Of a DNA stretch of 64,000 nucleotides, positions 18,733 to 54,631 are shown piece after piece. The stretch's first letter is position 1, and the number at the start of each line of letters is the position of its first letter. The DNA is taken from NCBI RefSeq assembly GCF_024223415.1, contig NZ_CP100500.1. One strand, 5' to 3'. The notes under the pieces are model-generated. The model was not told the DNA's origin. It saw only the letters and a list, made by a program, of their open reading frames with translations, and made no database searches. The translations under genes were made by a program, and so were the position numbers. This DNA is from Escherichia coli. GTDB lineage: Bacteria > Pseudomonadota > Gammaproteobacteria > Enterobacterales > Enterobacteriaceae.

Positions 18733-18742
18733 GGACATATTA

Positions 18743-26800: not shown

Positions 26801-27195
26801 GCTTTAACCCCGGCTTGTGACGCGCCCGCGCAGTGGTTGAGCAGCGGGAACATAAAGCATTCTGTTTTACCGGAGCCGGTACCGGTAGCAACCAGCGTCG
26901 GCTGTGGCGCGTCGCTTCCCAGACGCTGAAATGCCCGGGCCTGATGCGCGTGCGGCGGGAACGGCAGCGTCAGATTAGGGAAGAAATTCAGCGGTAAGTC
27001 ACTTTTACGAAACGGCAACTGGGCGGAAAGGTATGGTCCTTTCAGCAGCGTTTCGGGCTGGGCCAGAAATTGCTCCAGCATTGAGACATTATCGTTATTC
27101 TCACCGTTAAACAGCGGACTGTTTAGCGGGAACGCCGCCCGTAAAAAGGCGGCAACGCTGTCGGCGACCTGCCGACTGACAACGGATGGCAGCAT
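20854..27195 (-). CDS. 2113-aa DEAD/DEAH-box helicase with Cys-rich DUF1998-like region (DrmA+DrmB-like or DruE-like giant helicase)
   Basis: Motif I ATGTGSGKTECF, motif II VVDELHTFDG, motif VI QRIGRAGRKDG about 800 residues later, then CxxC clusters (CSHCNYS…CPKCG, CLGCG, CSCNND…CYRCV). C-terminal PDYVLYP…IFLDGFAFH patch might be a nuclease-like fold. Confidence 0.7.
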   Translation of the reverse strand: MLPSVVSRQVADSVAAFLRAAFPLNSPLFNGENNDNVSMLEQFLAQPETLLKGPYLSAQLPFRKSDLPLNFFPNLTLPFPPHAHQARAFQRLGSDAPQPTLVATGTGSGKTECFMFPLLNHCAGASQAGVKAIIIYPMNALATDQASRFAKTIASDTQLHGKVTVGLFVGDSEIEPSKKMSAEKVITCKHTLRESPPDILLTNYKMLDYLLMRPGDQPLWRYNQPGSLRYLVVDELHTFDGAQGSDLACLVRRLKHHIGVDNQRFACVGTSATVGDELGQLLDYAKTIFDQPFTDDAVIREDRYTAAEYLQDYAIAYSQYPGPEVASALDPQSYATPVAYLNGQIPLWFPDSDLQLPDDLESDDGREKRIALGSLLRRHSVMHVLLHDLQGGILSERECLENLQVMLAESADHARRVLQSILALIAQARLEVPETEHDRQKRLQAKKARPVLPFVQLRSQLWLREMRRLVASVAKTPRLVFADDVAVEDREHYLPVIHCRDCHATGWASLRHGQSVQLETDLDGIYRQFFEKGRSIVLAFPDNNEKAVSGAHQKLCPTCLKLNRQSSVQCGHCGHTELLQVLIPDMLKERKDELEFANECPYCNSKQGISILGSRAASLSAVMIHQLYGSQFNEHKKLITFSDSVQDAAHRASFFTARTWPLMIRGQIASVLGEKETLPLDAFAARVCQQTRERSPDDAHFAANFIAPNMQWLNDYQMLKNEGKLAENSDLPELVSLRLDWEVYSEFTLRARIGRTLEATGYAVAGVDKERFNPAITALHQQLCEELGDEMSGVSVEQVAHLALGVIWYQRQAGAVMHPAFESYRRDGTTFMMTQKERTSRYMPSIGPKTRKPAYASFEKINGFHRLIGAKSNPSWYQHWINRTLSNGNNLFISSVAETVLRRLFTALKIAGVVKDFDTKGREAWGLVPSALVVSRDVVQLNCSCCREVVRAPADQGWQWRNAPCLSLRCEGRYQEVDNTATWRWENMDIARVQGAEHTGLLSREDREATEKSFYRGNQPWNINLLSATPTLEMGIDVGDLSTVLLCSVPPAQANYLQRIGRAGRKDGNALNITVAEGNPHDQFFFEEPLEMMQGQVQAPGVFLNATAILERQLAAFCMDNWVKTGVPESAICKNVKQMLDELEFGRKSGFPYNLLRYIEQHHAEIAAQFTAIFPDLAAETRQQLLSYLQGAPGQRSLVQRIEEALKLLVEDRKSLRSRIDKLKRSIDKLENAPRDQNFDSDMRELTSERQALMALVNQINNKQTLNFLTDEGLLPNYAFPEAGITLRSVLWRRKEGGEAREYQNTTFEYERPASTALAELAPLNNFYAGGHKVEIEQIDLKVSEPENWRICSHCNYSENIDQTGDQHKYCPKCGTPGWADAGQKTTLLKLRQVYARASARDSQISDDSDSREPAFFQRQLLVSFEKEDVSAAYAIEEGEVPFGFEFLSKVTLRDINFGKMADDANELMIAGEAKKRTGFKVCLGCGMVQRPRDHEPRHDLSCKYRTEPEKAKFEDYLYLYRQLESEALRILLPVSSYSNDRVVEASLGAAIQLGLKHYFKGNVDHLKGVVYREPENEGESWRQYLVIYDTVPGGTGSLKELMRTPDNLLKLLELAYQAIVECSCNNDTHKDGCYRCVYAYRDRGRMKYVSRDQARLLLAKILQARDSIRVIDSIKNISLEAMMGSELEKRFISCLQENKNLIVSRSYAHQGAGWIINTRSEPMMSWHLKAQVDLGAKEAVGIPCRPDYVLYPLMQSDVIKPVAIFLDGFAFHKNSVAEDVQKRQAIRDSGNFWVWTVTWADLKEPGLKHVQDVLGLGHNPDMKQPKFYNLFHDTNFAALEASFRERNSFALLLDYLADPGGRTQLWQRMAAAHAWVWLDVKKSQDAGTKQKYAYEMQENAPAWRLAELLPDEPFVFGGLLDSCNSSQQFIELASVLPQQAIKPTTSVAQMRSWLRLHICFDDRYTQDDGYEAGLNGFWRLVNLLQFLPDMTFTSRKAVHLPQESVDTKVSATPEAVPETDESWAEIIEFGLLSAEEIALLQSHSLSAPTLGYELQNDEGEIIAEADLAWPSQKWALIIDNQEFIPLFTTRGWHVAFGPIDENTLQHLSGGDK

Positions 27196-32126: not shown

Positions 32127-32128
32127 GA

Positions 32129-34987: not shown

Positions 34988-35058
34988 CGGTTTTTCTGTC
35001 TATTTGGGGCAGTGGCGGTAACGTCATCCTGAAAAATGTGGCGCGGCACACTGCGATA

Positions 35059-35093
35059 AAAAAGAGGGCCTTAAAGATATCATGAAGGCCCCC
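35059..35093 (-). terminator. candidate rho-independent terminator between the Druantia-like operon and the SNF2-led operon
   Basis: On the minus strand: gggcctt-(12 nt loop)-aaggccc followed by tctttttt. Confidence 0.4.
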
Positions 35094-35210
35094 GGCAAAG
35101 TGACAAAATGGGAGGGAATGCGCATAAATTGCGCATGATTTTCAAACAAAAATTATTAAAAAGTGAGCTGGGTCAACTCCCCTGGAAGATATCCCCAGGG
35201 AAGCAATTAT

Positions 35211-38200
35211 TTATCCAGCGATAATATAACTCCTAAGGTCATTACCCGGGGCAACAGCTCGCGCTCGCGTGTTTGCCAGCCGTTCAACTTGCTGCGGTAC
35301 TCGCAGGGCAAAATCAAAGAAGGTATCTTCAATACAGCGCCAGTAGCTAAGCCCCATGTCGAGCAGGACATAATGCTGACTGCCATCGCTGAAGGTGACT
35401 GTCAGTTCTCGTCCATGCTCCGTACTCTGGTTATCCCCCGTTAACCAGCTAATTGCTCCCGGCCACGCAGGCCCCAGATATCCTTCTTCAAGTAAAGTGG
35501 TCACAACCTGCTGACGATCTTCCTCATTAAGCCACGCGTTATAGAGAGCGTCGTGTTGGCGAGAGTTGTAATCCAATTTTTTGACGCAAACAGTGAGGCT
35601 GGCGCGTTCCGCCATTCCCTGTTCAACCAGCTCGGTTAAGATTTCACCTAACAAACGCGCCGTGAATGGGCTATTAAGATAACGATCGCTGTACTCAACA
35701 TGCGTTATCTCTTTGTGGCGGGTAAATGCCTGCTTCCAGCCAGCGTGCTGTTGCGTGACTAACGACCAGAAACGCGAACCAAAACCTTCCAGCGGCCCGT
35801 CCAGTTGTTCACAGAGATTGATGCGCACCGCCCCGGTGGGTAAGGCGGGCAGTAAATCTTCTGCACTTAAGGTCTGACCCGAGAAGTTTTTTCCGGACGT
35901 TCCTTTAAGTGTCACTACTGGTGAAGACGCACTTTGTCCCCATAATTCACCAGGGGCAACGGTAGCGCTGTCGTCTGCGGCCCACTGTTGGCTTTGCCCT
36001 TCGCGAGTCACCTGCGCAAGCCAGCGCCCCTTTCCTTGCATGAGTTGCGCAGTGGCAATGGATTTCACTTGTAAGCGTCCTCCCGGCATCGCCGCCAACG
36101 CGGAAAGCTGATGTCTGGAGCTATCAGTTAAGTTTTCCAGCGGCGTGGCCACCAGCAACTCAACATTCCCACCGGAGGAGGCAAACTGGAGCAACTCTTT
36201 AAATAATGGCCATTGGGCAAAGTCCCACTGTTCCTGCGGCCCCGCAAGAACCAGCGAGCAGGAGTCATAAATCTCGCTGTTCAGGCATTGCGCAATACGT
36301 AAACTCAGAGGGTTAGTTTCAACCCGGCTACCATCGCCGAAGTACTGATATTCTGGCGCGAGGTTAAGTCGCTGCAACCGTACATTGGTAAGCAGGGTTA
36401 ATGCATGGTGACGATCTAATCTGTTGACATAATGCTGACTGTCGTAGCTGAGCAAGCAGTGGTGACAAAATTTATCGCAACTGCAATCGAGCAATTTTCT
36501 GGCGTAATTAAAGACATCAGCCCAATGGTCGATCAATTGCACTGCATAACCTGCACCACCCGCATTATTGTCGTATATGAAGATGGAATATCCGGTATAG
36601 CCATTGATATCGCGCGCTTGCTGCGTCGTCACGCCCAGCTCAGTATTTTCGATACCCAATTTATGCGCTAACCCTTCACGCAAAGCGACCGCAAGGGAAC
36701 GCGCGGCAACCTCATCACGGATCAACAGGCCATTATCATCATTGAGTTGCAGCTCAACCATATCTGTACGACTGCTATATCCCAACCACAGATCTTTATG
36801 CACATGACCGTGGCACAATTTATTGCTCCCCTGACGATCGTTACTGCCCCCTCGCAACAGGTAATGCGTATTTTCCCGCTCTGGGTTCTTTAGATTTTCA
36901 GGGGTACGCTGGGGTTGAGTTTGAGATTCTGCCCGACCACATGAGAGGCAAATTGCGTAGCCGTGCCCAAATTCCCCTTCACTGAAGTGGAACAATTCCC
37001 CACTATGGCTAAAACGGTAACGTCCTAGCCCAGCATCGGGTAAAGAAACCCACACCGAAGACGGTACAAGAACACGTGGATCTTTCCAAGGAAGTTGTGC
37101 AGGCATGGATACATCATTATGTGCCTGATAACGAATATCTGTCGCAAAACCAACAGGCTGTAAATAACGCTTCACATCAAGTTGCTGTATATCCGCTTTG
37201 CAGTGACTACATTCGACAGGACGGGTAGTACTGGTTGCCCCCGCACCACATTTACGGCAATGCCAGAACCACGGAATGTGATGATCGCCTGACAGCTCCT
37301 GCCCGCTGGCAAGTACCTTGCCAAGCATAATGCCCGAGGAACGATATACTTTTCCGCCCAATACCACATCTGCACCAGGCGCATACTCGCGTAATGCTGT
37401 AGGTAGATCACGGCTGGGCAATTTTTCAATACGACGAGAAAAGCTTTCTCCCCCTTCATTAGGGTCAGCCTGAGTAGCTTTTATTGCACGACGTTTTTCC
37501 AGCTCATCTGCCGTCAGATAATTGAAATTGACGACGCCAACCGGGAAACCATGCCCCGGCAGGAACGCTTCACTAATGAGTTTAGAAAACAGATATGCAC
37601 CGCGATAATCACGAAGCTGATAAGCGATGGCTTTACCTGCTGGCGTTTCTTCCCACGCGCTGTTATCCGCCTTCAACGCTTCGATATTTTCCAACAGTAT
37701 CGCAAGTTGGCTTCTCCAGCGGATATCAACCTGCTGCATCATTGCTTGTGTGCGGGTCAAGAGCTGGGTTGCCGTCAATGACTTCAGGACGGTTCCCTGA
37801 GTAAGGCGTTTAAGTTTATCCGCCAGCTCATCGGCCTGGTGATTTAACCAATGAAGAAAACGAAGACACTGGCTCTCATCACCTTCAAAGAACCATTTGC
37901 AACTCAGTTTTGTCGCATCAGGTACTTCAGCTCGTAAAAACAGACCTAAAACCAGGGCATTAACATGTCGTTGAACAATACTACTGCTCCCAAAACGAAC
38001 CCGTGGCGCACTGGCAGTAGTGTTGAACGCCCAGAGGGGGTCTTTGAATACCTCCATTCCATGCGCCGTGTTTTTACATAACGTAATGGCAGCAGATGCA
38101 CTCTCTCCACGACGCCCCGCGCGACCTGCACGCTGCAAATAATTTGCCGGCGCTGGAGGAACGTTGTTCATTGCCACCAAACTCATACCACCAATATCCA

Positions 38201-38693
38201 CCCCCATCTCCATGGTCGTGGAACAGTTCAGCACATTAACTTTGCCTGACTTAAATTGTTTTTCATTAAACTGGTTCTGCTCAGGCGTTCTCTGCGCAGA
38301 GTGTTCCTCCAGACGATACCAGCTATCTTTCAGGGCCAGTCGGTCGCTGCGAGTAGACCATAATCCTTCCTCGCGGGCATGTTGAATCAGCGCATTACTT
38401 TCCAGCCACTCCAGACGTTCTTCTCGGGCGATTTCTCCACCACCAGACAAACGCCAGTGACGTACAGGAAGCTCAGGCATTTCAATCAACACTGCTTTTT
38501 CAGGTGCAATTTCTTTGCTACCCGGCAAATACGGAGAGTATCCCAGCAACGTGACGTCTAACGCACGTCGAGTATAGGGGCAACGCCACACTTGCTTTGG
38601 ACTGTAAAATTCAGCCTGTTGTTTAATATCCAGCTGATAACCCGACTCAAACTGACGTAAGCAGGGTCGAATTGCATCCCAGACCTCAATCAT
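35211..38693 (-). CDS. C-terminal segment (1160 aa) of a DruE-like giant helicase; frame open upstream to the A7 tract at 38830-38836
   Basis: Helicase motif VI …ANYLQRAGRAGRRGE… near its N-terminus (matching the C-terminal lobe of the upstream ORF), then Cys clusters (CRKCGAG…CSHCKAD, CLSCGRAES, CSCDKFCHHC). Architecture parallels the 2113-aa protein. Confidence 0.7.
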   Translation of the reverse strand: MIEVWDAIRPCLRQFESGYQLDIKQQAEFYSPKQVWRCPYTRRALDVTLLGYSPYLPGSKEIAPEKAVLIEMPELPVRHWRLSGGGEIAREERLEWLESNALIQHAREEGLWSTRSDRLALKDSWYRLEEHSAQRTPEQNQFNEKQFKSGKVNVLNCSTTMEMGVDIGGMSLVAMNNVPPAPANYLQRAGRAGRRGESASAAITLCKNTAHGMEVFKDPLWAFNTTASAPRVRFGSSSIVQRHVNALVLGLFLRAEVPDATKLSCKWFFEGDESQCLRFLHWLNHQADELADKLKRLTQGTVLKSLTATQLLTRTQAMMQQVDIRWRSQLAILLENIEALKADNSAWEETPAGKAIAYQLRDYRGAYLFSKLISEAFLPGHGFPVGVVNFNYLTADELEKRRAIKATQADPNEGGESFSRRIEKLPSRDLPTALREYAPGADVVLGGKVYRSSGIMLGKVLASGQELSGDHHIPWFWHCRKCGAGATSTTRPVECSHCKADIQQLDVKRYLQPVGFATDIRYQAHNDVSMPAQLPWKDPRVLVPSSVWVSLPDAGLGRYRFSHSGELFHFSEGEFGHGYAICLSCGRAESQTQPQRTPENLKNPERENTHYLLRGGSNDRQGSNKLCHGHVHKDLWLGYSSRTDMVELQLNDDNGLLIRDEVAARSLAVALREGLAHKLGIENTELGVTTQQARDINGYTGYSIFIYDNNAGGAGYAVQLIDHWADVFNYARKLLDCSCDKFCHHCLLSYDSQHYVNRLDRHHALTLLTNVRLQRLNLAPEYQYFGDGSRVETNPLSLRIAQCLNSEIYDSCSLVLAGPQEQWDFAQWPLFKELLQFASSGGNVELLVATPLENLTDSSRHQLSALAAMPGGRLQVKSIATAQLMQGKGRWLAQVTREGQSQQWAADDSATVAPGELWGQSASSPVVTLKGTSGKNFSGQTLSAEDLLPALPTGAVRINLCEQLDGPLEGFGSRFWSLVTQQHAGWKQAFTRHKEITHVEYSDRYLNSPFTARLLGEILTELVEQGMAERASLTVCVKKLDYNSRQHDALYNAWLNEEDRQQVVTTLLEEGYLGPAWPGAISWLTGDNQSTEHGRELTVTFSDGSQHYVLLDMGLSYWRCIEDTFFDFALRVPQQVERLANTRARAVAPGNDLRSYIIAG

Positions 38694-38755
38694 TAAGTGG
38701 TTAACTAACGATTTCCAGTGAGCCTGCTCAGGTTGTATTGCCGGAAAGACTGCGA

Positions 38756-41533
38756 TTAATAGCTTAATGACCCGGTTATAATGGCGATCGCGTATTTGTG
38801 GCCAAAGTTGATCACGTTTCTGCCCTTTGTTTTTTTATCTGGCCCCTGGAGCATTTTTACCGGGAAACGTGCCCCCATCCAGCGAGGGTATTGCTCGTTT
38901 TCGTAAAAAACGGCACTGTTTTCACGGATAAAGAAATCAAGAGTAATCTTCAATAAATTACGCCATTCCGCTAATTGCTTATCGGGATCGGGTAATAATG
39001 TCTTCCAGTCCTGCGGGCAGGTTGTAACTTTATCAATAAATGGATAGTGAATGGCTACCAGACCCAGACTTTCGAGGGTCCAGGCATTTTTAGGGCGGCG
39101 ACCAAACTCGCTGTATAAACAAAAATCTGCAAACTGTTGTTTAGTAAGATCAAGCCCAGACAATTCTTTAAAACTGCCTCTCATTCTATCGGCAAGGTCC
39201 ACACTGCCAACCAGCTGTTCAGACAGCGTTTGCCATGACATGGTTTTCTTCTGCTGATTGCCAGAGTTAACCTGAAGTATTTGCATCGCTTCAGCATGCT
39301 CCGGGCTTAAGGAACTCACCATCGGCTCAATAATTTTAAGTGACTGAATGTCCGCCGGGCTAAGCTCCTCATTCGCAGCCATCGCTTTTTTCAGCGCGTC
39401 GATGGAATTTTTTAAAGGGAGGACAGAAAACTGGCTAATAACTTTCTCTAACAGTGCACAGTGTGCCGGGCTGAGTTTTGCTGAAGGCTCTGTAATATTT
39501 GCCAGCTCCTGGTAACAAAGAGCTCGCAACGTCGCTTTATCGGCATCCTGCTGTAAGCGGGCTGAAATGCGAGCGGTACCCTGACGCGAATCCGTAAAGG
39601 TGAGCAAGCGTCGACCATTAAACGGTCCTAACTGCTCTTCTCTTGTTTGCGGTAATGGAGAAAACTCCAGCAGAGTAGGAATAATTTCATTTAAAAAAAA
39701 GGGCGCGCCGAGCCGAAGCGGACGGAATAAAGGATTATTTTTCCGTTGAGTGTCACCACAGCAAACACAAGCAAAGGAGTTATTGCGCCCCTCACCTCGA
39801 GATTCCGGTCTTAACAGGTTTATTTCATAGTGCTTTTGCGCTTCACTATCAATTTTCCCCGCCGTCGTTTCTTCCAGTGAAATGATATATTTTTCACCAT
39901 CGCTCGCAATCAGACGATCAAATTGAGAGTTATTGTCTAATTCGTCGTTGTCTTCATCTTCAGAATAAACATCTACATCAAGAGCAAACTCATCCACTTC
40001 GGCAGCGGCTGGTTGCGCTACCAACCAGTTCGTTCCATCACCGCGCATCTCCTCTTTGGCAGACAAATAAGCTGAACCACACCCGGAGCAACGTAAAACT
40101 TCAAATACCGGCGCTCCACAGTCACAATATTGGCGCTGCTCAAACCATACCTGACCAAATGGCCAGTCACTCTGATTTAATTCATGTGCTTTATGTGAGC
40201 ATTGTTTGTTTGAACATGCCCATAGACCCGCCAGTGTTCTGATAAACCCATGCATACGTAATGGCGTAAAAGCCAGTTCACCTTCTCGCGATCTTGCCAT
40301 TAGATCGAGGAGTTGCAGTAGCTCACGGTGATTAATATCTGGCCAGGTTCTTCTGGCAACATTGAGCAACTCACTCAAACGTACTGCCTGCCGTCCGGGA
40401 TGAGTTAACGCCTGACGCAATTGCTGGGCCACACGGTAATGACAAAGCTGTTGGTAAAGATCCTGAGGGCTCAGGGATTTAAGAGAAGTTAAAGATGTGG
40501 GGTATTCATGACGAATCAGCGACTCCGATACCCGCGGTATTTGTCGATAACCGCGAACCACTTTGACATCACGTTCTGTAACGCCCGCGAGATCAGCGAC
40601 AAATTTAGCAAGCTCCTTATTACCTTCAGGAGAGTCTTCACCAATAGTGGCAGAGGTCGCGATAATCTGCACAGGTTTATCTGTGCCGGGTCCAACATTG
40701 AAAGCCTGCATAACACGACGTAAAAGCAGCGCTAACTCAGCAGCCTGAGAACCAATATAACTATGGGCTTCATCCAGGACGATATACTTTAACATCCCCT
40801 GAGACTTTTCGATGATTGGGGCATCTTTACGACGAATCAGCATATATTCCAGCATGGTGGTATTCGTCACCATGATGGAAGGTGGTGCTTCATAAATGGC
40901 TTCCCGACTCAAAGCTTGTTCAGGTACTTTCAACTGATCTTCCTGAACTTCGTATTTGGTATGCCGGGTTTCGCCATTATATAGCGCGAAGCGTATTTTC
41001 CCCTTAAATCCGCGCGTCCATTCGCGAAGCCGCTCCTGTTGGCTGTTAATTAATGCATTTAACGGATACAAGAAAATAGCTTGTGTCCCTGTTAGTGACT
41101 GGCGGGTCGATTTTTGCTGACGAATAAGATCTTCCAGAACCGGTACCATAAAGCATTCTGTTTTCCCGGATCCCGTACCGCTGCTCACTAACAAGGATTT
41201 TTTGTCTTCCAGAATCGTTCGCCACGCAGTAAGTTGATGACGAAATGGCACTGGCGCTTTGCTCAATGCATCAACCAGCGGGCTGGAGATCAGCTTGTCC
41301 CGCAAATCCTCCATTGTTTCATCCGCAGGCATCCAGCCGAATGTACTTTCGAATACCGGGTCTGCAAGCAGTGACCCCTCCTGACCGGGAGGCTGAAAAT
41401 ATTGTGATTCCAGATAATGAGTCAACGACTTGCTCCGCAATGCCAACTGACTTACCACCGACCTCACCGCACGCTGATGAAGCTGATTTAGAAGTGGCGC
41501 ATAATGCAGTTGCTGAACGTCCATCAATGACAT
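38756..41533 (-). CDS. N-terminal segment (925 aa) of a DruE-like giant helicase; ends 2 codons... stop shortly after an A7 tract
   Basis: Motif I VSSGTGSGKTECFMVPVL, motif II VLDEAHSYIG, internal Cys clusters as in the 2113-aa paralog. It is in a different frame from the downstream 1160-aa ORF by exactly one nucleotide. Confidence 0.7.
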   Translation of the reverse strand: MSLMDVQQLHYAPLLNQLHQRAVRSVVSQLALRSKSLTHYLESQYFQPPGQEGSLLADPVFESTFGWMPADETMEDLRDKLISSPLVDALSKAPVPFRHQLTAWRTILEDKKSLLVSSGTGSGKTECFMVPVLEDLIRQQKSTRQSLTGTQAIFLYPLNALINSQQERLREWTRGFKGKIRFALYNGETRHTKYEVQEDQLKVPEQALSREAIYEAPPSIMVTNTTMLEYMLIRRKDAPIIEKSQGMLKYIVLDEAHSYIGSQAAELALLLRRVMQAFNVGPGTDKPVQIIATSATIGEDSPEGNKELAKFVADLAGVTERDVKVVRGYRQIPRVSESLIRHEYPTSLTSLKSLSPQDLYQQLCHYRVAQQLRQALTHPGRQAVRLSELLNVARRTWPDINHRELLQLLDLMARSREGELAFTPLRMHGFIRTLAGLWACSNKQCSHKAHELNQSDWPFGQVWFEQRQYCDCGAPVFEVLRCSGCGSAYLSAKEEMRGDGTNWLVAQPAAAEVDEFALDVDVYSEDEDNDELDNNSQFDRLIASDGEKYIISLEETTAGKIDSEAQKHYEINLLRPESRGEGRNNSFACVCCGDTQRKNNPLFRPLRLGAPFFLNEIIPTLLEFSPLPQTREEQLGPFNGRRLLTFTDSRQGTARISARLQQDADKATLRALCYQELANITEPSAKLSPAHCALLEKVISQFSVLPLKNSIDALKKAMAANEELSPADIQSLKIIEPMVSSLSPEHAEAMQILQVNSGNQQKKTMSWQTLSEQLVGSVDLADRMRGSFKELSGLDLTKQQFADFCLYSEFGRRPKNAWTLESLGLVAIHYPFIDKVTTCPQDWKTLLPDPDKQLAEWRNLLKITLDFFIRENSAVFYENEQYPRWMGARFPVKMLQGPDKKTKGRNVINFGHKYAIAIITGSLSY

Positions 41534-44500
41534 ACTCCTGCTTGTTCAAAATAATATTGATAGATTACACCTAATTGCTGTGGGGCTTGCTGATAGTGAA
41601 ATTCAAAAAGCGCAGACAGTTGATGTATCAGGTTATTATCTTTTTGGGTTAACAGCGCTGCGACTAACATCAAATTAAAACGTTTTTCAAGCCGTGAGTG
41701 ATATTTATCTTCAATCCAAAGCTTATTAAAAACAGATTTTAACTCTGGAGTAATAGCACTAGACCAAAGTTCTTTAGGGAAGATACTGATACGCCCAAAG
41801 CTGTCGGGGTTCCTTAATAGCATCTGTTTAGCTTCATTAAACTGCTCACGACTAACAGTTGGCAATACATCACAACCGGTTGGTAGGCTCTCACTATATG
41901 TAAGTAACATATTCGCAATCGGAGCCAGCCGACGATCGATATGTGCACGATGGTTCATAAAAGCAATAAAGGGTTGCAATATATGTAATGCTAATGTTTT
42001 ATCGTTAATCTGTTTCTCCAGATAAGTCCAACATTTTTGGAAAACATCTTTCCAGATTGAAACGGGAATCCATCCCCATGAAAAGGGTAATTCTTCCTGT
42101 ATATCATAAATCGTATCGCTATCACCAGAAAGACATGATGATATTAACAATTGAACAACCACGCGGTAATTACTCGAAATACCTCTGAACAAGTCCAGAT
42201 CCAGCAAGGATAAGCCATTATTCATTTTGTATTTCTTAATATACTCTGTTAATAAACAGCAATAATTTTGCAATGGGTTGTTATCTATTTCAAAAATTAG
42301 CTCATTAAAATTTTTTTTGCGCTGTTCTGGGTCTGCTTCGCATAGAGCATTTAGTAATAAATCATTTGTCTGCAATACAGGTAGCATCCATTTAATTACT
42401 GGTGCAATGCGAGCTGTACCATCAAGTTTTCCCACAATTAACCATGGACTATCCTGAACATTCAGAGCTGAAAGATCATAAGCAAACTCATCTTTTTTTA
42501 ACAATGATATGTGTAAGCCAGGATTCTTAAGAGAAATAGCATCAACAACCAGTTCGTCTATTCTATTTGCAGGAAAAACAACAGAATTTTTTATATCAAC
42601 CAGTAACCCTTGATCGTGTTCAATAAAACTACCATCGTAGCGTTTAATATTGAGTGTTGCTTTATCCTTTCCAAATCTGTCAGAGTAAAAATCAACACAT
42701 AATGTACTATTGCTGTTCCATGCACATGCCAGCATAGCATTTAGCAAATTATAGTTCTCATAAAGTGAAATTTGTTGTAATTTGTCATTGCGTCCTGATA
42801 AAAGAGGAAGGTCGGCATGTAAATAGCGGAATTTTTCAGCTACTGGATTTTCATCCAATAACTCGATATTAAGATATCCTCTTCCAGCACATGATATGGT
42901 TAATAACTCAGCATCTATTCCATGCAAATGTGCTATAGATGCCACACCATCAAAATGAACAGAACCATCATTAGTTACAAATCGGCCACCGCTAACCGGC
43001 TTAGGTAATAATAGTTTAAGATTAGAACCATCTTTCCAGGAGACCCGTAAATCAACGGTATTTTCCAGCATCAGCGATGAATTATAATAAATAGCACACT
43101 CGTTTTGTGAATAATCGGACTTAAGTGTTACTTTTTCATTGTTTAAATATTTATCAATTCTAGTATCCGTTATACCAGAAAGCATAATAATGCCTTGCTG
43201 AGCACTCTCAGGTATAATATTAATATCGAAGTCTGCTGGTAAAACTACAACTTTACCGCTAAATAAAACCTCATCATTAACTATTCGCCGGACTTCTATC
43301 TGTCCTTTTGGCATTTCTGATGCGACAGAATACCAGGCATTGTTACCTGAACGAATGGAACGCCAAAAAAGTTCTTTCTCCGGTACAATGCCATATTGCA
43401 GATCCTTTTTCCAACCGATCTTCGGCCAGGCTCGATGGACAGGATAATCCGATTTAACCAGTTCAACTTCTGTCGATTTAATATAATATTCAATCGCAGA
43501 ATCATAAAGTTGCTGGGTGCGAATTGTACAAACTGCACCATCATGTAAAACAACGCTAAATACTCCACTTATTTTAGTTAAGCTGCGTTCACTGTTTTTC
43601 AGCAACCTTGGGATATCAAACTCACCTTCTCCACTAATATCTAAATGGCTATTTTTCGGTAGCGAAATAAACAGAGCATTTAGCCTGGAACTCACAGACC
43701 CCATACCAACAAGTTTTAGCTGCGATTCACTCTCATTCATCGCTTCAAAAACCCAGGGAAGTTCTTCAGTAAGTTCATAACCGCCTTTTGGAATTGTGTG
43801 ACCTAACAGAATTGGACCTTCATGAAGCGACAATGAGATTTCGGCCATTGCATCTGCACCAGAGAGTTTTTGCATCGCAATAGGTAATAACTCGACCCGC
43901 CAATCTTGCTGCTCATAACGGCTTAGCATTGCCAACCTTGCCCCGCCATTTTTCCATTTTCCTGAAATGATGAGTCGGGTCTGCTCCGGCTGAATATGGC
44001 ATTCAAACAAAGAGGTTAACTGTTCTGTACGCATTGTGGCCGGGAATCGGAACCGGGCATCGCAATACCAACTGTCATCAACATCGACCCAGATTCTTTC
44101 AACCTGAAGACTACTTGCACTGCGTATTTCAGAAGATTGAGATAGTAATCGCCTTACAATCTCTGCAGCATTCGCTTCGGGGAGAACGAGTGGAAGTTTA
44201 AGATGCCAGTCTGGAGAGAGCTTACGTAATGCAGAAACGGGATCACTGCTTTGAGGAGGATGCTCACTAAGTAATCGGCAGAGAGTCTCGCAGAATTCAC
44301 CGGCTATTTCATAGACCAGTTCGTTTTGCATTGTGACAGGAATCGTATCGCCTAATTCTTGTGCAATTTTAGCGGCAGGATATTGAGATGATTGCCCACG
44401 AAGCGCCTGATATATCCTTCTGAAATAGGTAATCAAATAACCGCTCTCATTTTCAATCATGCGGATAGGCAAACCACCTTCACAAGCCAGTGTATGCAGA

Positions 44501-44883
44501 TAACCCGAAGCTTGTCCCAGGTTTCTTATCTTTCTTTTCCAGTAGCGAATGCCATCATTAACCAGCTTCTGTCGATGAACATACGGAACTTTCCAGTTAA
44601 TAGAATCTAAAATTGTGTCCCATTTAGGGTGTCCGACCGTATGAGTCCGGCGGATAAACTCTGCGGCATATATGCTAAATAGAACATCGCTATAGGAAAT
44701 GAATATCGTTCTTGGATAACTACGGGGGGCATATGTACGCAGTAGTTCTGCCAAACTTTCGTACTCTGTATCAGTACAACGGTAAGCATATAACGCCCGT
44801 CCATCAGCTCCGGATAATGAACGGCGACTAAAAAACATGTTAAGCCATTGCAAAAGTGGGTTAACTGGAGTTTTCACAAGCAA
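41524..44883 (-). CDS. 1119-aa protein of unknown function (DruH-like partner of the giant helicase)
   Basis: Large ORF with no motif recognisable by eye. Its stop overlaps the start of the 925-aa helicase ORF by ~10 nt, implying co-translation. Position and size fit the partner gene of Druantia type III. Confidence 0.5.
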   Translation of the reverse strand: MLVKTPVNPLLQWLNMFFSRRSLSGADGRALYAYRCTDTEYESLAELLRTYAPRSYPRTIFISYSDVLFSIYAAEFIRRTHTVGHPKWDTILDSINWKVPYVHRQKLVNDGIRYWKRKIRNLGQASGYLHTLACEGGLPIRMIENESGYLITYFRRIYQALRGQSSQYPAAKIAQELGDTIPVTMQNELVYEIAGEFCETLCRLLSEHPPQSSDPVSALRKLSPDWHLKLPLVLPEANAAEIVRRLLSQSSEIRSASSLQVERIWVDVDDSWYCDARFRFPATMRTEQLTSLFECHIQPEQTRLIISGKWKNGGARLAMLSRYEQQDWRVELLPIAMQKLSGADAMAEISLSLHEGPILLGHTIPKGGYELTEELPWVFEAMNESESQLKLVGMGSVSSRLNALFISLPKNSHLDISGEGEFDIPRLLKNSERSLTKISGVFSVVLHDGAVCTIRTQQLYDSAIEYYIKSTEVELVKSDYPVHRAWPKIGWKKDLQYGIVPEKELFWRSIRSGNNAWYSVASEMPKGQIEVRRIVNDEVLFSGKVVVLPADFDINIIPESAQQGIIMLSGITDTRIDKYLNNEKVTLKSDYSQNECAIYYNSSLMLENTVDLRVSWKDGSNLKLLLPKPVSGGRFVTNDGSVHFDGVASIAHLHGIDAELLTISCAGRGYLNIELLDENPVAEKFRYLHADLPLLSGRNDKLQQISLYENYNLLNAMLACAWNSNSTLCVDFYSDRFGKDKATLNIKRYDGSFIEHDQGLLVDIKNSVVFPANRIDELVVDAISLKNPGLHISLLKKDEFAYDLSALNVQDSPWLIVGKLDGTARIAPVIKWMLPVLQTNDLLLNALCEADPEQRKKNFNELIFEIDNNPLQNYCCLLTEYIKKYKMNNGLSLLDLDLFRGISSNYRVVVQLLISSCLSGDSDTIYDIQEELPFSWGWIPVSIWKDVFQKCWTYLEKQINDKTLALHILQPFIAFMNHRAHIDRRLAPIANMLLTYSESLPTGCDVLPTVSREQFNEAKQMLLRNPDSFGRISIFPKELWSSAITPELKSVFNKLWIEDKYHSRLEKRFNLMLVAALLTQKDNNLIHQLSALFEFHYQQAPQQLGVIYQYYFEQAGVCH

Positions 44884-45094
44884 CCTGCCTTCCTTTGATA
44901 CAATTCGTAACAGGTTACTATCATCATAAAAAAGCTCAACCCGATGAACTCGCTAAAAATGAGACAAATCATTTATATCTCGAAAAAACTTGTTACAATC
45001 ATGAGCGCTACACCGAACTTAACCATATAAATTATGTGTGTTTTGTTTATTTTTTAAACGATTACAACTATCCATTATTTACACAGGTATCAAA

Positions 45095-46747
45095 ATGTTA
45101 GCGCAGCTTTTTGAGCAGTTGTTTCAATCGATAGACTCTACACTGATCACCAATATTTTCATCTGGGCTGTTATATTCGTATTTTTATCAGCGTGGTGGT
45201 GTGACAAAAAAAATATACATAGTAAGTTTAGAGAATATGCTCCAACCTTAATGGGGGCATTAGGTATTCTGGGTACTTTCATTGGTATTATTATTGGTTT
45301 ACTCAATTTTAATACCGAAAGTATTGATACCAGCATCCCCGTATTATTAGGTGGCCTAAAAACAGCATTCATTACAAGCATTGTAGGTATGTTTTTTGCC
45401 ATTTTATTTAATGGAATGGATGCTTTCTTTTTTGCCAATAAACGAAGTGCGTTAGCAGAAAATAACCCTGAATCTGTTACACCTGAACATATCTATCATG
45501 AATTAAAAGAGCAGAACCAGACTCTGACTAAATTAGTCTCGGGTATTAACGGTGATAGTGAAGGTTCTCTTATTGCTCAAATAAAATTACTACGTACTGA
45601 GATTAGCGATTCCTCGCAGGCACAATTAGCTAATCACACTCATTTCAGTAATAAGCTTTGGGAACAACTTGAACAATTTGCAGATCTAATGGCAAAAGGT
45701 GCTACAGAACAAATTATTGATGCTTTGCGACAAGTCATTATTGATTTTAATCAAAATTTAACTGAACAGTTTGGTGAAAACTTTAAAGCTCTTGATGCCT
45801 CTGTAAAAAAACTTGTTGAGTGGCAGGGAAATTATAAAACGCAAATTGAGCAGATGTCAGAACAATATCAACAAAGTGTCGAGTCCCTGGTTGAAACAAA
45901 AACTGCGGTTGCAGGGATTTGGGAAGAATGTAAAGAAATTCCTCTGGCTATGTCTGAACTGCGTGAAGTGCTTCAGGTGAACCAACATCAAATCAGCGAA
46001 CTCTCCCGCCATTTAGAAACCTTTGTCGCCATCCGCGATAAAGCTACAACCGTATTACCTGAAATACAGAACAAAATGGCTGAAGTGGGTGAACTGCTGA
46101 AATCCGGAGCTGCAAATGTTAGTGCATCTCTTGAGCAAACCAGCCAGCAAATACTTCTTAATGCAGATTCAATGCGCGTTGCCCTGGATGAAGGTACCGA
46201 AGGATTCAGACAATCGGTTACCCAAACACAACAAGCATTTGCCTCGATGGCACATGATGTCAGCAATTCCTCCGAAACCTTAACCAGCACGTTAGGTGAA
46301 ACAATTACTGAAATGAAACAAAGTGGTGAAGAATTCCTGAAATCACTAGAGTCGCACTCGAAAGAATTGCATAGAAATATGGAACAAAATACGACGAATG
46401 TGATTGATATGTTCAGTAAGACTGGTGAAAAGATTAACCATCAACTATCCAGTAATGCCGATAATATGTTTGATTCAATCCAGACATCATTTGATAAGGC
46501 AAGTGCAGGGCTGACTTCTCAAGTCAGAGAATCAATTGAAAAATTTGCTCTATCCATCAACGAGCAGTTACATGCTTTTGAGCAAGCAACTGAACGTGAA
46601 ATGAACCGTGAAATCCAATCATTAGGTAATGCTCTGCTTTCAATCAGCAAAGGTTTTGTCGGTAACTATGAAAAACTTATTAAAGATTACCAAATAGTTA
46701 TGGGGCAGTTACAAACATTAATTTCTGCTAATAAACATCGCGGGTAA
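45095..46747 (+). CDS. zorA: Zorya ZorA-like (MotA/ExbB-like membrane domain with long coiled-coil tail)
   Basis: N-terminal TM helices (…LMGALGILGTFIGIIIGLLNF…, …FITSIVGMFFAILFNG…) then ~400 aa of heptad-rich low-complexity sequence. The start is taken at ATG 45095 (AGG RBS); the ORF track uses an upstream GTG at 45038. Confidence 0.75.
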   Translation: MLAQLFEQLFQSIDSTLITNIFIWAVIFVFLSAWWCDKKNIHSKFREYAPTLMGALGILGTFIGIIIGLLNFNTESIDTSIPVLLGGLKTAFITSIVGMFFAILFNGMDAFFFANKRSALAENNPESVTPEHIYHELKEQNQTLTKLVSGINGDSEGSLIAQIKLLRTEISDSSQAQLANHTHFSNKLWEQLEQFADLMAKGATEQIIDALRQVIIDFNQNLTEQFGENFKALDASVKKLVEWQGNYKTQIEQMSEQYQQSVESLVETKTAVAGIWEECKEIPLAMSELREVLQVNQHQISELSRHLETFVAIRDKATTVLPEIQNKMAEVGELLKSGAANVSASLEQTSQQILLNADSMRVALDEGTEGFRQSVTQTQQAFASMAHDVSNSSETLTSTLGETITEMKQSGEEFLKSLESHSKELHRNMEQNTTNVIDMFSKTGEKINHQLSSNADNMFDSIQTSFDKASAGLTSQVRESIEKFALSINEQLHAFEQATEREMNREIQSLGNALLSISKGFVGNYEKLIKDYQIVMGQLQTLISANKHRG

Positions 46748-46753
46748 TCGATC

Positions 46754-47461
46754 ATGGATAAGATTATAGGGAAACAATTACCTAAAAAAGATCAAGATAA
46801 TGAACATTGGGTATCCATGTCAGACCTAATGGCAGGGCTGATGATGGTTTTTATGTTCATATCTATTGCTTATATGCACTACGTACGTATTGAAAAAGAA
46901 AAAATTAAAGAAGTTGCCGTAGCCTACGAGAATGCTCAGTTACAGCTTTATAATGCTCTGGATATTGAGTTTGCAAAGGATTTACAAGACTGGGATGCAG
47001 AGATCGATAAACAGACTCTGGAGGTTCGATTTAAATCACCGGATGTTTTATTTGGCTTAGGAAGCACAGAGCTAAAACCAAAGTTTAAACTCATTCTTGA
47101 CGACTTCTTTCCTCGCTACCTAAAAGTTCTAGATAATTATCAGGAACATATTACTGAAGTCCGCATTGAAGGTCACACAAGTACTGACTGGACAGGAACA
47201 ACGAATCCTGATATTGCTTATTTTAATAATATGGCACTATCGCAAGGTCGTACACGTGCAGTATTACAATACGTTTATGACATAAAAAATATCGCGACAC
47301 ACCAACAATGGGTTAAAAGTAAATTTGCCGCAGTAGGTTATTCATCTGCACATCCCATTCTTGATAAAACCGGCAAGGAGGATCCTAATCGCTCTCGTCG
47401 TGTCACCTTCAAAGTTGTAACAAATGCCGAGTTGCAGATTAGAAAGATTATTCAGGAGTAA
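46754..47461 (+). CDS. zorB: Zorya ZorB-like (MotB-like membrane anchor with OmpA-type peptidoglycan-binding domain)
   Basis: N-terminal TM (…LMAGLMMVFMFISIAYM…) and OmpA-like motif …RIEGHTSTDW…NMALSQGRTRAV…NRSRRVTFKV. Confidence 0.75.
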   Translation: MDKIIGKQLPKKDQDNEHWVSMSDLMAGLMMVFMFISIAYMHYVRIEKEKIKEVAVAYENAQLQLYNALDIEFAKDLQDWDAEIDKQTLEVRFKSPDVLFGLGSTELKPKFKLILDDFFPRYLKVLDNYQEHITEVRIEGHTSTDWTGTTNPDIAYFNNMALSQGRTRAVLQYVYDIKNIATHQQWVKSKFAAVGYSSAHPILDKTGKEDPNRSRRVTFKVVTNAELQIRKIIQE

Positions 47462-47464
47462 GAG

Positions 47465-48568
47465 ATGAAATTATCTATCGACCTTTCAGAACTTATTCAA
47501 TTAGGGAAGAAAATGTTACCAGAAGGAGTCGATTTTTTTCTGGATGAATCCCCTATTGACTTTGATCCTATAGATATTGAGTTATCCACGGGTAAAGAAG
47601 TTAGTATCGAAGATCTTGACCCTGGTAGCGGGCTTATCTCTTATCATGGCCGCCAGGTTCTTTTATATATTCGGGACCATTCAGGGCGTTATGATGCGGC
47701 TATCGTAGATGGCGAAAAAGGAAAACGTTTTCATATTGCCTGGTGCAGAACTCTTGATGAAATGCGCCATAAAAATCGATTTGAAAGGTATCATGCAACT
47801 AACCGCATAGATGGTTTATTCGAAATTGATGATGGTTCAGGTCGGAGCCAGGATGTTGATTTACGGGTATGTATGAATTGCCTCGAACGACTTAATTATA
47901 AAGGAAGTATTGATAAACAACGAAAAAGAGAGATTTTTAAATCATTCTCATTAAATGAGTTTTTTTCAGATTATAGTACCTGTTTTCGTCATATGCCTAA
48001 GGGTATCTATGACAAAACAAATAGTGGGTATGTCGAAAACTGGAAGGAAATATCTAAAGAAATACGAGAAAAGGCCAATTATGTTTGTAATGATTGTGGC
48101 GTGAATTTATCAACCGCCAAAAACTTGTGCCATGTCCATCATAAAAATGGCATCAAATATGATAATCACCATGAAAACCTTCTTGTTCTGTGCAAGGATT
48201 GCCATCGAAAACAGCCCCTCCACGAAGGTATATTCGTTACCCAAGCTGAGATGGCTATCATTCAACGTTTACGTTCCCAACAAGGGCTATTAAAAGCAGA
48301 ATCCTGGAATAAAATATATGACCTGACTGATCCATCAGTGCATGGTGATATTAATATGATGCAACATAAAGGCTTTCAACCTCCTGTTCCTGGGTTAGAT
48401 CTTCAAAACTCAGAACATGAAATTATTGCAACCGTAGAAGCTGCATGGCCAGGCCTTAAAATTGCAGTTAACCTTACTCCCGCCGAAGTCGAAGGATGGA
48501 GAATATATACCGTGGGTGAGCTGGTTAAAGAAATACAAACCGGAGCCTTTACGCCAGCAACTTTGTAA
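47465..48568 (+). CDS. zorE: Zorya type II effector ZorE-like HNH endonuclease
   Basis: HNH motif CNDCGVNLSTAKNLCHVHHKNGIKYDNHHENLLVLCKDCH. It follows zorB by 3 nt. Confidence 0.7.
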   Translation: MKLSIDLSELIQLGKKMLPEGVDFFLDESPIDFDPIDIELSTGKEVSIEDLDPGSGLISYHGRQVLLYIRDHSGRYDAAIVDGEKGKRFHIAWCRTLDEMRHKNRFERYHATNRIDGLFEIDDGSGRSQDVDLRVCMNCLERLNYKGSIDKQRKREIFKSFSLNEFFSDYSTCFRHMPKGIYDKTNSGYVENWKEISKEIREKANYVCNDCGVNLSTAKNLCHVHHKNGIKYDNHHENLLVLCKDCHRKQPLHEGIFVTQAEMAIIQRLRSQQGLLKAESWNKIYDLTDPSVHGDINMMQHKGFQPPVPGLDLQNSEHEIIATVEAAWPGLKIAVNLTPAEVEGWRIYTVGELVKEIQTGAFTPATL

Positions 48569-48579
48569 ATTCTAACACT

Positions 48580-48603
48580 CCGTGAAAGTTAAGACTTTCA
48601 CGG
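48580..48603 (+). terminator. 10-bp perfect hairpin (ccgtgaaagt-taag-actttcacgg) after zorE
   Basis: Perfect stem-loop immediately downstream of the zorE stop. No clear U-run follows, so terminator function is uncertain. Confidence 0.35.
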
Positions 48604-48753
48604 AAGATAAATAAAACTTCCCTGATTTGTGACTCAAATTACAAAAGTAGTTTATGGCATAACTTGTCTATCTTTATGGTGTAATAGGTATAAAGGTATA
48701 TGCTATGGTTCGCCTCATACTTAAAACTTCCCTCATACGGGTGAAGGTTAAAG

Positions 48754-49032
48754 CTTTGTAGACAGGAGACAGTCACAATGAATAAAACAATAAATTGATG
48801 TCGCACGCGCCGATGGGCATGGCGGGTAATGTAACTTTTGTACACAACGGCAAGGCTTATGTTACTGGCGGTGTTAACCAGAACATCTTCAATGGCTATT
48901 TTGAAGATCTCAACGATGCTGGAGAATATTTAGCAGCTATAGACAAGATCAATGCCTATTATTTCGACAAAAAAGCAGAAGATTATTTCTTCAATAAGTT
49001 TTTGTTGTCTTTTGATCCCTCAACACAGCAAT
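48754..49032 (+). pseudogene. diverged nanM remnant (first ~37 bp of nanM fused to an internal ~240-bp nanM segment), preceded by a nanC-promoter-like GGTATA repeat at 48687-48700
   Basis: 48754-48790 matches 15079-15115 (gtagacaggagacagtcacaatgaataaaacaataa). 48791-49032 matches 15460-15700 at roughly 90 percent identity by eye. Same orientation as the intact nanM. Confidence 0.8.
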
Positions 49033-49107
49033 GGATCTTCACTTGCAGGCTTGAACAGCAGAAAATTTGCGAGCATGATCGCAATTATTTCACTGCCAGG
49101 GATATCA

Positions 49108-49980
49108 ATGGCTTCCAGTAAATCGCTACAGCAGGCAATTGCCAACATAAAAATCTGGCACAAGGGTGAACAGCGCGCGCCGCATAAGCCATTGTTATTG
49201 CTATACGTATTAGCGGGATACCTGAATGGACATCCACGCCTTTTCGATTATGGATCGGAAATCTACGAACCTCTGCACAGTTTACTGGAACGTTTTGGGC
49301 CACAGCGTTCACAGTACCGACCTGATATGCCGTTCTGGCGATTACAAGGCGACGGATTCTGGCAATTACACAATGCCGAGCTTTGCTCAACAGCAGGGAG
49401 CAGCCGACAACCGCCAGTGAAGGAACTGAACGAATACCACGTTGCAGGCGGTTTCGATGAACAGCACTACGCCCTGGTAACCGGCAATAAAAAACTCATC
49501 AATACTCTGGCGCAACAGATACTCGAAGCGCACTTCACCGAGAGTATTCAGGAAGAAATTGCTGACGAGCTGGGTTTTGATCTCCAGCAAATCCGTAAAC
49601 AGCGCGACCCGTTATTTCGCAAAAATGTATTACGCGCTTATAACTACCAGTGCGCGATATGTGGCTTTAATATGCGCCACGACGACACCACCGTCGCGCT
49701 GGAAGCGGCGCATATAAAATGGAAACAGCACGGCGGTCCTTGTGAAATTCCTAATGGCCTGGCGCTTTGCGCAATTCACCATAAAGCCTTTGATAAAGGA
49801 TCGATTGGCCTGGATGAAAATATGCGGGTACTGGTCTCGGATGCGGTAAACGGCGGAGGGATCGTTGAGAGATTATTCTGGGATTTTGACGGGAAAACTA
49901 TTGCGTTGCCGCAGGTGCGTAAAAATTACCCTTATGAGGGGTTTGTGGAGTGGCATCGGGAAGAGGTTTTTAGGGGGTGA
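49108..49980 (+). CDS. HNH endonuclease with unidentified N-terminal domain (candidate modification-dependent restriction enzyme)
   Basis: C-terminal HNH motif YQCAICGFNMRHDDTTVALEAAHIKWKQHGGPCEIPNGLALCAIHHKAFD. The start is taken at ATG 49108 (MASSKSLQQAIANIKIW) with AGGGA RBS, because the ORF-track start at 48952 lies in the nanM remnant. Confidence 0.6.
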   Translation: MASSKSLQQAIANIKIWHKGEQRAPHKPLLLLYVLAGYLNGHPRLFDYGSEIYEPLHSLLERFGPQRSQYRPDMPFWRLQGDGFWQLHNAELCSTAGSSRQPPVKELNEYHVAGGFDEQHYALVTGNKKLINTLAQQILEAHFTESIQEEIADELGFDLQQIRKQRDPLFRKNVLRAYNYQCAICGFNMRHDDTTVALEAAHIKWKQHGGPCEIPNGLALCAIHHKAFDKGSIGLDENMRVLVSDAVNGGGIVERLFWDFDGKTIALPQVRKNYPYEGFVEWHREEVFRG

Positions 49981-54628: not shown

Positions 54629-54631
54629 AAA

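Follow-up and report, generated by a model that had tools for sequence, protein, structure and literature searches.

A nanM fragment beside an Escherichia coli defence island as the probable relic of a second sialic-acid operon

Truncated flanking genes, such as partial tRNA genes and fragments of core genes, are known at the edges of genomic islands, where recombination has left them. Expression of nanC, one of the sialic-acid genes of Escherichia coli, depends on cAMP-CRP. The nanCMS operon is one of three NanR-controlled operons of the sialoregulon; NanR is reported to bind (GGTATA)3 operators in three operons, with an affinity for two repeats (dissociation constant, KD, ~25 nM) about equal to that for three (PMC8012715). 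Here we analyze a 64,000-nucleotide stretch of E. coli DNA (contig NZ_CP100500.1; hereafter the window), which is the uxuA-fim-nan-leuX region and is ~99.1–99.4% identical to that of strain Combat11I9. Besides intact nanC, nanM and nanS, the window holds a second, fragmentary nanM (nanM') preceded by a promoter-like region (P'). We propose that this segment, 48628–49035, is probably the relic of a second sialic-acid operon, P'-nanM-nanS, which had no nanC.

Window positions 48001–49600 were compared by BLAST with the whole window, which gave two collinear matches on the + strand. The first, 48758–48793 against 15078–15113, is perfect (36/36, 100%; E 1e-12), while the second, 48791–49035 against 15451–15695, has 227 identical positions out of 245 (92.65%; E 1e-101). 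The two nanM copies have the same orientation and are 33,680 bp apart, start to start. The original prediction, made by eye, had put this direct repeat at about 90 percent identity; the alignment upholds it, with coordinates within a few bases of those predicted (the right end is 49035) and a similarity that is not much shorter or weaker than had been read. The copies do bracket nanS, an insertion sequence (IS) remnant, which belongs to the IS4 family, and a set of defence modules, the 'DISARM-like' one among them being the module now named ARMADA II. Chance similarity or an assembly artefact is ruled out by the E-value of the longer match and by the presence of the same structure, below called R1, in 463 of 5,426 complete genomes. 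The repeats also do not have the character of attachment sites: they are gene fragments at 92.7% identity, and leuX lies 4.3 kb further on. No integrase was found within the bracketed block in either the annotation or the PADLOC results.

The remnant, the gene that follows it and the intact counterpart are laid out as follows. Nucleotides (nt) of nanM are counted from the ATG at 15098 and not from the PGAP start at 15094.

48758..48793, + strand: ribosome-binding region and first 16 nt of the coding sequence of nanM' (ATG at 48778–48780; BLAST 36/36)
48791..49035, + strand: internal fragment of nanM', equal to nanM nt 354–598 and out of frame with the kept start codon
49036..49107, + strand: 72 bp left of the spacer between the divergent genes for the HNH endonuclease and the restriction endonuclease
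49108..49980, + strand: gene for a phosphorothioated-DNA-binding restriction endonuclease (NCBIfam NF045808), intact, directly 3' of the remnant
15094–16200: intact nanM, from the PGAP start
15078..17304, + strand: intact counterpart, comprising nanM, nanS, a small open reading frame (ORF) and the final ~50 bp of an HNH-endonuclease gene

The first of these segments begins at the base equivalent to the last one of the nanC stop codon and ends at nanM nt 16. The remnant lacks nanM nt 17–353, a deletion of 337 bp with a TAA microhomology at its junction, and reads ATG AAT AAA ACA ATA AAT TGA, that is, it reaches a stop after six codons. The coding part of nanM' is dead and encodes no NanM; of the complete gene, an ORF of ~368 codons for a signal peptide and a six-bladed kelch propeller, only nt 1–16 and 354–598 are left. 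At the nucleotide level its descent is clear from the two matches given above, and the remnant sequence matches nanM in 5,100 E. coli genomes. In RefSeq it is listed as a pseudogene, an incomplete N-acetylneuraminate epimerase, and in strain Sakai it is yjhT (ECs_5255), inside SpLE6.

A second deletion ends on the right at 49036..49107. Homology to an intact form of the locus, found in strain TW14425 (L007) and described below, resumes at 49035, which equals TW14425 position 23384 and lies 64 bp before the start codon of the HNH gene and 73 bp before that of the endonuclease gene; from there on, window 49035–49251 is 98.6% identical to TW14425 23384–23600. The deletion took ~2.27 kb (the 3' half of nanM', nanS', the small ORF and the HNH gene) and shows 1 bp of microhomology. 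K-12 retains the region equivalent to 49036..49107 downstream of nanS. Also in K-12 MG1655 (L005 42675–43018), the first ~14 nt of the HNH-endonuclease gene are left after nanS, and the endonuclease gene survives as a fragment of 248 bp, in which 72 bp between ACAGCAG repeats are deleted. Within the 72 bp kept in the window, upstream of the restriction endonuclease gene, lies a small palindrome, TTGCGAGCATGATCGCAA (49067–49084), which is kept in TW14425; a scan marks it as terminator-like on both strands, but it could be a binding site for a regulator.

The region upstream of nanM' contains elements of a nan-type promoter, listed here with those of the resident nanC.

48628..48643, + strand: CRP-like site TGTGACTCAAATTACA of P' (TGTGA-N6-TTACA), aligning with the nanC and K-12 nanX sites
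48678..48700, + strand: predicted NanR-type operator GGTGTAATAGGTATAAAGGTATA, with one imperfect and two perfect GGTATA repeats
48701..48757, + strand: P' leader, specific to this operon form and conserved among P' loci
13869–13946, + strand: core of the resident nanC promoter, aligned to P' and to the K-12 nanX promoter
13869–13884, + strand: CRP-like site of the nanC promoter
13924–13946, + strand: NanR operator of the nanC promoter, GGTATAACAGGTATAAAGGTGCA
14358–15074: nanC, followed by nanM

The GGTATA-aa-GGTATA motif that had been noticed at 48687–48700 is there exactly as claimed and forms part of a three-repeat operator of the pattern GGTGTA-at-A-GGTATA-a-A-GGTATA. It thus has at least two GGTATA repeats with the native spacing of 2–3 nt. 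The CRP-like site, predicted from sequence, lies 50 nt upstream of the operator, compared with 55 nt in the nanC promoter, and is collinear with the sites of known nan promoters; it is conserved across P' loci, except that Sakai has GTGGC. The stretch from the CRP-like site to the GGTATA repeats (48628–48700) can be aligned both with the nanC promoter core (13869–13946) and with the nanX promoter of K-12. These local alignments score more than 10 standard deviations above shuffled sequences, and identity over the core is ~65%.

Outside the core the likeness ends. The P' leader has no detectable homology to nanC or to the nanC 5' untranslated region (UTR), and the 62 nt that separate the P' operator from the 20 nt shared in front of the nanM ATG have no significant similarity to the nanC 3' end (in a global alignment, 147 of 1000 shuffles scored equally well). 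No nanC sequence is present upstream of the remnant. Because the core is only ~65% identical and the leader lacks significant similarity to nanC, P' is a separate relative of the nan promoters and not a copy of the resident nanC promoter. The description of the segment as a nanC-promoter/nanM remnant therefore holds for its nanM part, but not for its promoter. A copy of the nanC promoter followed by deletion of nanC was likewise rejected, since the leader shows no significant similarity to the nanC 3' end or UTR. Another candidate, that P' is part of the Zorya II module upstream, was also rejected. In Citrobacter freundii and in a second contig, from the public sequencing run ERR10789709, homology is already lost ahead of the zorE stop codon, and GGTATA repeats are absent downstream. 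This places P' on the nan side of the junction.

A 20-nt direct repeat (17/20, with an exact AAAACTTCCCT core) at 48607–48626 and 48717–48736 flanks the P' CRP site and the NanR operator, and is found in other P' loci too. It could be due to chance or be the trace of a promoter segment of ~110 bp that was inserted or duplicated.

P' also occurs in front of intact genes. A query constructed by joining the zorE 3' end and P' (48269–48757) to the intact nanM-nanS (15078–17303) was matched end to end, in one piece and at 97.5–98.0% identity, in four complete E. coli genomes (TW14425, S43, MB06022 and GF4-3), with a single match in each. In all four the annotation reads zorE, full-length nanM, nanS, a small ORF, an HNH endonuclease on the opposite strand and the phosphorothioate-dependent endonuclease. 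Thus, in intact loci nanM-nanS lie directly downstream of P', whereas in the window only the dead fragment does. The operator in these four genomes is the perfect GGTATAACAGGTATAAAGGTATA, and their island-adjacent nanM alleles are ordinary E. coli alleles, 98–99% identical. TW14425 lacks gntP, fim and nanC; after uxuA come 603 layout-specific bp and then the island, starting at the equivalent of window position 18497. This left junction is present in ten genomes; TW14425 and Res13-Lact-ER02-39 (L026) represent the small group with the island in place of gntP, the whole fim operon and nanC. Six of the ten are clonal pig isolates carrying an IS66-associated deletion that runs from the druE 5' end rightwards and takes in druH, Zorya and P' as well as nanM-nanS.

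A scan of one genome per bacterial species for an 18-mer of the P' leader matched only Escherichia sp. E1V33, a separate GTDB species, plus two unrelated sequences. In E1V33 zorE-P' is 96.9% identical to the window and stands directly before nanM. The reading frame of that nanM stays open for 313 codons or more, with 92.4% identity to the E. coli gene, and its product falls in a main cluster of 10,962 members. E1V33 was rejected as the donor of the remnant allele: the identity is 91.8%, and the 5' part of its nanM is only ~84% identical to E. coli.

An accessory sialic-acid cluster on an E. coli contig (L025 3103–8107) comprises genes for a nanA-like product, a major facilitator superfamily transporter, a KdgM/NanC-like protein and NanM. 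It is ~81% identical to the chromosomal genes, and its operator, upstream of the nanA-like gene, is identical over 24 bp to that of the window remnant. This nanA-nanT-nanC-nanM cluster was rejected as the source of the remnant on account of its 81–83% identity.

Remnants of the operon occur in two forms. R1, the window form, was introduced above. In R2, nanM' nt 1–498 run directly into the final ~120 bp of nanS', and the HNH and endonuclease genes come next; this form is present in 93 genomes (LR-60, CUPS05 and 91 others). P' itself is found in 567 genomes, nearly all of which are covered by R1, R2 and the four intact loci. Since R2 retains the nanS' 3' end and the HNH and endonuclease genes, nanS' and the HNH gene were formerly downstream of nanM'. 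The R1 remnants of Sakai, MB20 and the window have 12 common differences from the intact nanM consensus, 10 of them synonymous and 2 non-synonymous. Random decay would give roughly the reverse. Therefore, most of the ~5% divergence arose under selection, in a lineage outside those sampled. The R1 haplotype is marked by 390T, 391A, 447C, 496G, 498A, 507C, 510G, 516T, 519C, 522T and 565T. A window-specific cluster of non-synonymous changes at nanM' nt 480–496 is later decay. Overall, the history of the remnant allele appears to be mosaic.

These observations bear on the possibility, raised with the original prediction, of an ancestral duplication of the nan locus. In such an account nanC-nanM was duplicated in place, the defence modules were later inserted between the copies and the downstream copy diverged by decay. 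It would explain why the copies are same-orientation direct repeats around the island and why a NanR-type operator precedes both. However, beyond the shared 20 nt before the ATG the upstream sequences are unrelated, apart from the ~65% identical promoter core, and there is no trace of nanC. The 10:2 ratio of R1 substitutions is also at odds with decay, which gives mostly non-synonymous changes. Finally, P'-nanM-nanS is the sole, intact nanMS copy in genomes without nanC, in another layout of the region, and occurs in another Escherichia species. We consider duplication in place very improbable. The broader idea that the repeat bears on how the island block came to lie where it does is supported.

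The way in which two layouts of the region meet in the window is seen from the features between the two nanM copies.

17305..18496, + strand: left junction of the island in the window layout, made up of the IS4-family transposase remnant and ~400 bp specific to this layout
~17353–18099, + strand: IS4-family transposase remnant, annotated 'transposase domain-containing protein, frameshifted' (IS4 match ~93%)
18497..48568, no strand assigned: defence island common to both layouts (PADLOC matches; the left boundary at 18497 also in TW14425)
48579..48604, + strand: hairpin just 3' of the zorE stop codon (48566–48568), with an 11-bp perfect stem and a 4-nt loop

The complete left junction (17305..18496) is present in 446 genomes. 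Its IS4 remnant joins the two layouts inside the HNH gene, at window position 17305. The segment upstream of it, 15078..17304, is 98.4% identical to TW14425 20491–22717 across 2,227 bp and is the unit that was formerly duplicated.

From what is observed of the anatomy of the remnant, its homology, the intact form, the two deletion forms, their distribution and the gene conversion described below, we infer an order of events and a route of recombination. The intact operon consists of the CRP/NanR-type promoter P', a 76-nt leader, nanM and nanS, followed on the 3' side by the small ORF, the divergent HNH-endonuclease gene and the phosphorothioate-dependent restriction endonuclease gene. It stands directly 3' of zorE, where the ARMADA II/Druantia III/Zorya II island ends on its right side. 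In genomes of the window type, the common layout (fim-nanC-nanM-nanS-HNH) and the island-adjacent layout (island-P'-nanM-nanS-HNH-endonuclease) are arranged in series, so that uxuA-gntP-fim-nanC-nanM-nanS, the IS4 remnant, the island and P'-nanM' succeed one another. K-12 has the common layout, with the body of its HNH gene deleted. The likeliest origin is that a chromosome with the common layout recombined with DNA from a lineage with the island-adjacent one. The exchange may have been homologous at one end, on the right-hand side of nanM', and illegitimate or mediated by an IS at the other, within the HNH gene that follows nanS. Such an exchange would have left nanM-nanS as a direct repeat around the island, with the redundant downstream copy free to decay. 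Two illegitimate deletions disabled it, one of 337 bp within nanM' and one of ~2.27 kb from nanM' nt 598 onward. Joining of the two layouts would explain both the direct repeat and the boundaries of the repeated unit, 15078 to 17304.

A Campbell-type event would be a particular case of the same explanation, with the same product: a circle made up of IS4-island-P'-nanM-nanS-HNH' would have undergone a single crossover with the nanM-nanS of the chromosome. Such an event yields the observed order, with the 2.2-kb unit (15078–17304) on both sides and the IS remnant at the joint. However, no circular form was found, nor any copy of IS4 at the opposite island end. In the island-adjacent layout, moreover, the left junction is another one and lacks IS4, and a double exchange with one illegitimate end fits the present data equally. 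We regard a single crossover with a circle as possible but rather unlikely.

Several points weigh against the joining of two layouts through exchange. P' is only ~65–73% identical to other nan promoters. No donor with the R1-specific nanM haplotype was found among the sampled genomes. R1 and R2 are ~5% different in their overlap, which means either two origins or a history blurred by later recombination. The layout evidence from E1V33 covers only 1.3 kb of contig. Lastly, the island-adjacent layout could have arisen from a window-like ancestor by loss of gntP-fim-nanCMS; the unique 603-bp left junction and the typical E. coli nanM allele speak against such simple descent. On balance, we still consider the relic of a second operon, brought together with the resident nanCMS by exchange between the two layouts, the probable explanation.

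The scar can be followed beyond this chromosomal site. Four plasmids, among them the conjugative IncFIB plasmid pQnrS1_005237, carry DruE, DruH, zorA, zorB, zorE, P' and the R1 remnant at 96.8–96.9% identity. Plasmid homology stops at the equivalent of window position 49053, where an IS5-type end starts. In MB20 the block has the same 49053 end point, followed by ISKpn26, and lies at a different chromosomal site, near gss and hyb. As they carry the R1 remnant, the blocks on the plasmids and in MB20 derive from the chromosomal island.

A direct repeat is in principle a substrate for deletion of the whole block, as had been suggested. This is formally possible, but the longest perfect runs between the two copies of the window are only 50, 36, 36, 33 and 32 bp. 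Moreover, none of the 5,426 complete genomes covered, to 80%, a query constructed for the predicted island-deleting junction (the nanC 3' end plus nanM as far as nt 598, continued from 49036). What the repeat does undergo, in its R2 form, is gene conversion. LR-60 and CUPS05 share the same R2 junction and have near-identical P', yet differ at 23 sites in nanM' nt 1–498, while the CUPS05 remnant differs at only 4 sites from the intact nanM of the same genome. Both CUPS05 copies carry 150A, 196A and 424A, not seen in the other alleles examined, and the intact CUPS05 nanM has 399A and 474T, otherwise confined to R2 remnants. Variants are thus shared both ways, and conversion in CUPS05 has therefore been bidirectional.

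It may be asked whether the relic still has a regulatory role, either because P', under CRP and NanR, reads through nanM' into the endonuclease gene or because the operator serves as an extra NanR site. The window keeps the CRP-like site and two perfect adjacent GGTATA repeats, a number that suffices for NanR binding in the work cited above (KD ~25 nM; PMC8012715), and the identical 24-bp operator precedes the nanA-like gene of the accessory cluster (L025). The endonuclease gene begins 408 nt from P' on the same strand, and the only hairpin between them is a weak one of 6 bp. On the other side, Sakai-type remnants have a single perfect repeat and a mutated CRP half-site, and in MB20 and the plasmids an IS5-type element follows 49053, with no endonuclease gene after it. 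In addition, 72 bp of the native sequence upstream of the endonuclease gene are still in place, with plausible -35/-10 hexamers visible by eye; a consensus scan found no sigma-70 promoter on the + strand. We therefore think a remaining regulatory function improbable. The stricter claim, that P' is a fourth, previously undescribed NanR/CRP promoter of Escherichia that is still active after the death of its operon, is likewise improbable. If it were true, sialic acid and cAMP would modulate transcription into the endonuclease gene, or the site would titrate NanR, and a gut nutrient signal would be coupled to a defence gene. The argument that decay of the operator proves the promoter dead was withdrawn, as the exact operator variant of the window precedes an apparently intact nanA-like gene. 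An open nanM downstream of an operator with one perfect repeat, as in E1V33, also counts against it.

The order of genes in the first half of the region is fimB (- strand, first in the order and before nanC), nanC, nanM, nanS, the IS4-family remnant and a four-gene helicase/methyltransferase module. The second half consists of DruH and DruE, zorA2, zorB2, zorE, the remnant, the endonuclease gene, a 682-codon ORF and the leucine tRNA gene below.

53329–53413: leuX, 4.3 kb beyond the remnant

The defence island corresponds to OI-172/SpLE6. The ARMADA II module codes for a UvrD-like protein, a DruE-like helicase of 2113 amino acids (aa), a 1643-aa methyltransferase and a 952-aa SNF2 helicase, and has DrmD, DrmMI/type IIG, DruE-like and GajB-like matches in PADLOC. 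Druantia III (DruH, and DruE, which is split in the window) and Zorya II (zorA, zorB, zorE) were confirmed by PADLOC. The Druantia III helicase gene, druE (35211–41533, - strand), is made up of two ORFs in different frames, 38756–41533 (925 aa) and 35211–38693 (1160 aa), where Combat11I9 and Sakai annotate one gene of 6,315 nt. This suggests a frameshift or a sequencing indel around 38694–38756 in the window strain. The hairpin at 48579..48604 (RNA fold -16 kcal/mol, z = -4.0), kept in 8 of 8 aligned P' loci, is probably the end of the zorABE transcript. No Rfam families were found in 48400–49300. The endonuclease gene at 49108–49980 matches NF045808 with 438.8 bits (cut-off 180); PADLOC gives HNH matches and the RefSeq annotation is concordant.

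Between the restriction endonuclease gene and leuX, the intact 682-codon ORF (50603–52651, - strand) has no match in Pfam, NCBIfam or PADLOC, and its homologue is annotated as frameshifted in Combat11I9 and CUPS05. Further on, between ahr and yjgR, a block of ~5.1 kb (54629–59715) is present that neither Combat11I9 nor Sakai has. Its ORFs of 187, 343, 254, 439 and 342 aa agree in size with the L-idonate genes idnK and idnDOTR, of which idnK and idnD flank ahr in K-12.

The relic pseudogene is already annotated in RefSeq, and it is otherwise an ordinary gene relic, one that records how the island joined the chromosome. It changes nothing in the current understanding of sialic-acid metabolism or phage defence. 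Its value is that of a provenance mark: scar-bearing Druantia III/Zorya II blocks, on IncF plasmids and at the MB20 gss site, come from the chromosomal island, and the relic can be used to trace the spread of a clinically relevant defence island of enterohaemorrhagic E. coli. It also leads to a rarely sampled uxuA-leuX layout, in which the island stands in place of gntP, type 1 fimbriae and nanC, while nanM-nanS have their own NanR-type promoter. With P', a fourth promoter bearing a predicted operator would be added to a regulon described with three. In addition, sequence still passes between a dead gene fragment and the functional paralogue that lies 33 kb from it.

Among described systems, the Sakai island SpLE6/OI-172 is the same island, at ~99% identity. 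The published account of OI-172 does not mention nanM, nanS, yjhT or leuX and does not treat the relic, P' or the alternative layout; no publication naming both nanM and Zorya was found. Compared with the truncated genes known from island edges, the locus is similar in that a fragment of a neighboring core gene, repeated at the far side, marks the joining. It is unlike them in having no att-type repeat of an integrase, and its copies are ~7% diverged, with a promoter of their own.

In E. albertii, too, a NanR/CRP-type promoter stands almost directly on nanM, with no nanC: at L023 6839–7003, fimB is followed by a nanC-type CRP/NanR promoter and, ~35 nt later, by nanM. Operons of this kind thus recur in the genus. 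However, by its position beside fimB the E. albertii promoter is orthologous to that of nanC (85% identity); it has no defence island adjacent and is only 73% identical to P'. An AGACAGG-like motif occurs in E. coli just after the nanC operator and again at the nanC-nanM junction, which suggests that the UTR-nanC segment may have been lost or gained between short repeats.

The K-12 nanXY (yjhBC) promoter has the same perfect GGTATAACAGGTATAAAGGTATA operator as the intact P' loci and a similarly spaced CRP-like site, but it drives a transporter and a hydratase gene behind a leader of ~400 nt, elsewhere in the leuX region. Another close system is the K-12 nanCMS operon itself (nanC/yjhA, nanM/yjhT, nanS/yjhS). 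Its nanM-nanS are 98% identical to the intact form and 93–95% to the remnant, and it shares the CRP-like site, the GGTATA repeats, the orientation towards leuX and the downstream HNH and endonuclease genes. In contrast, the P' operon has neither nanC nor the ~415-nt 5' UTR, its promoter core is ~65% identical and its upstream neighbor is zorE instead of fimB, and the window keeps of it a fragment of 281 bp.

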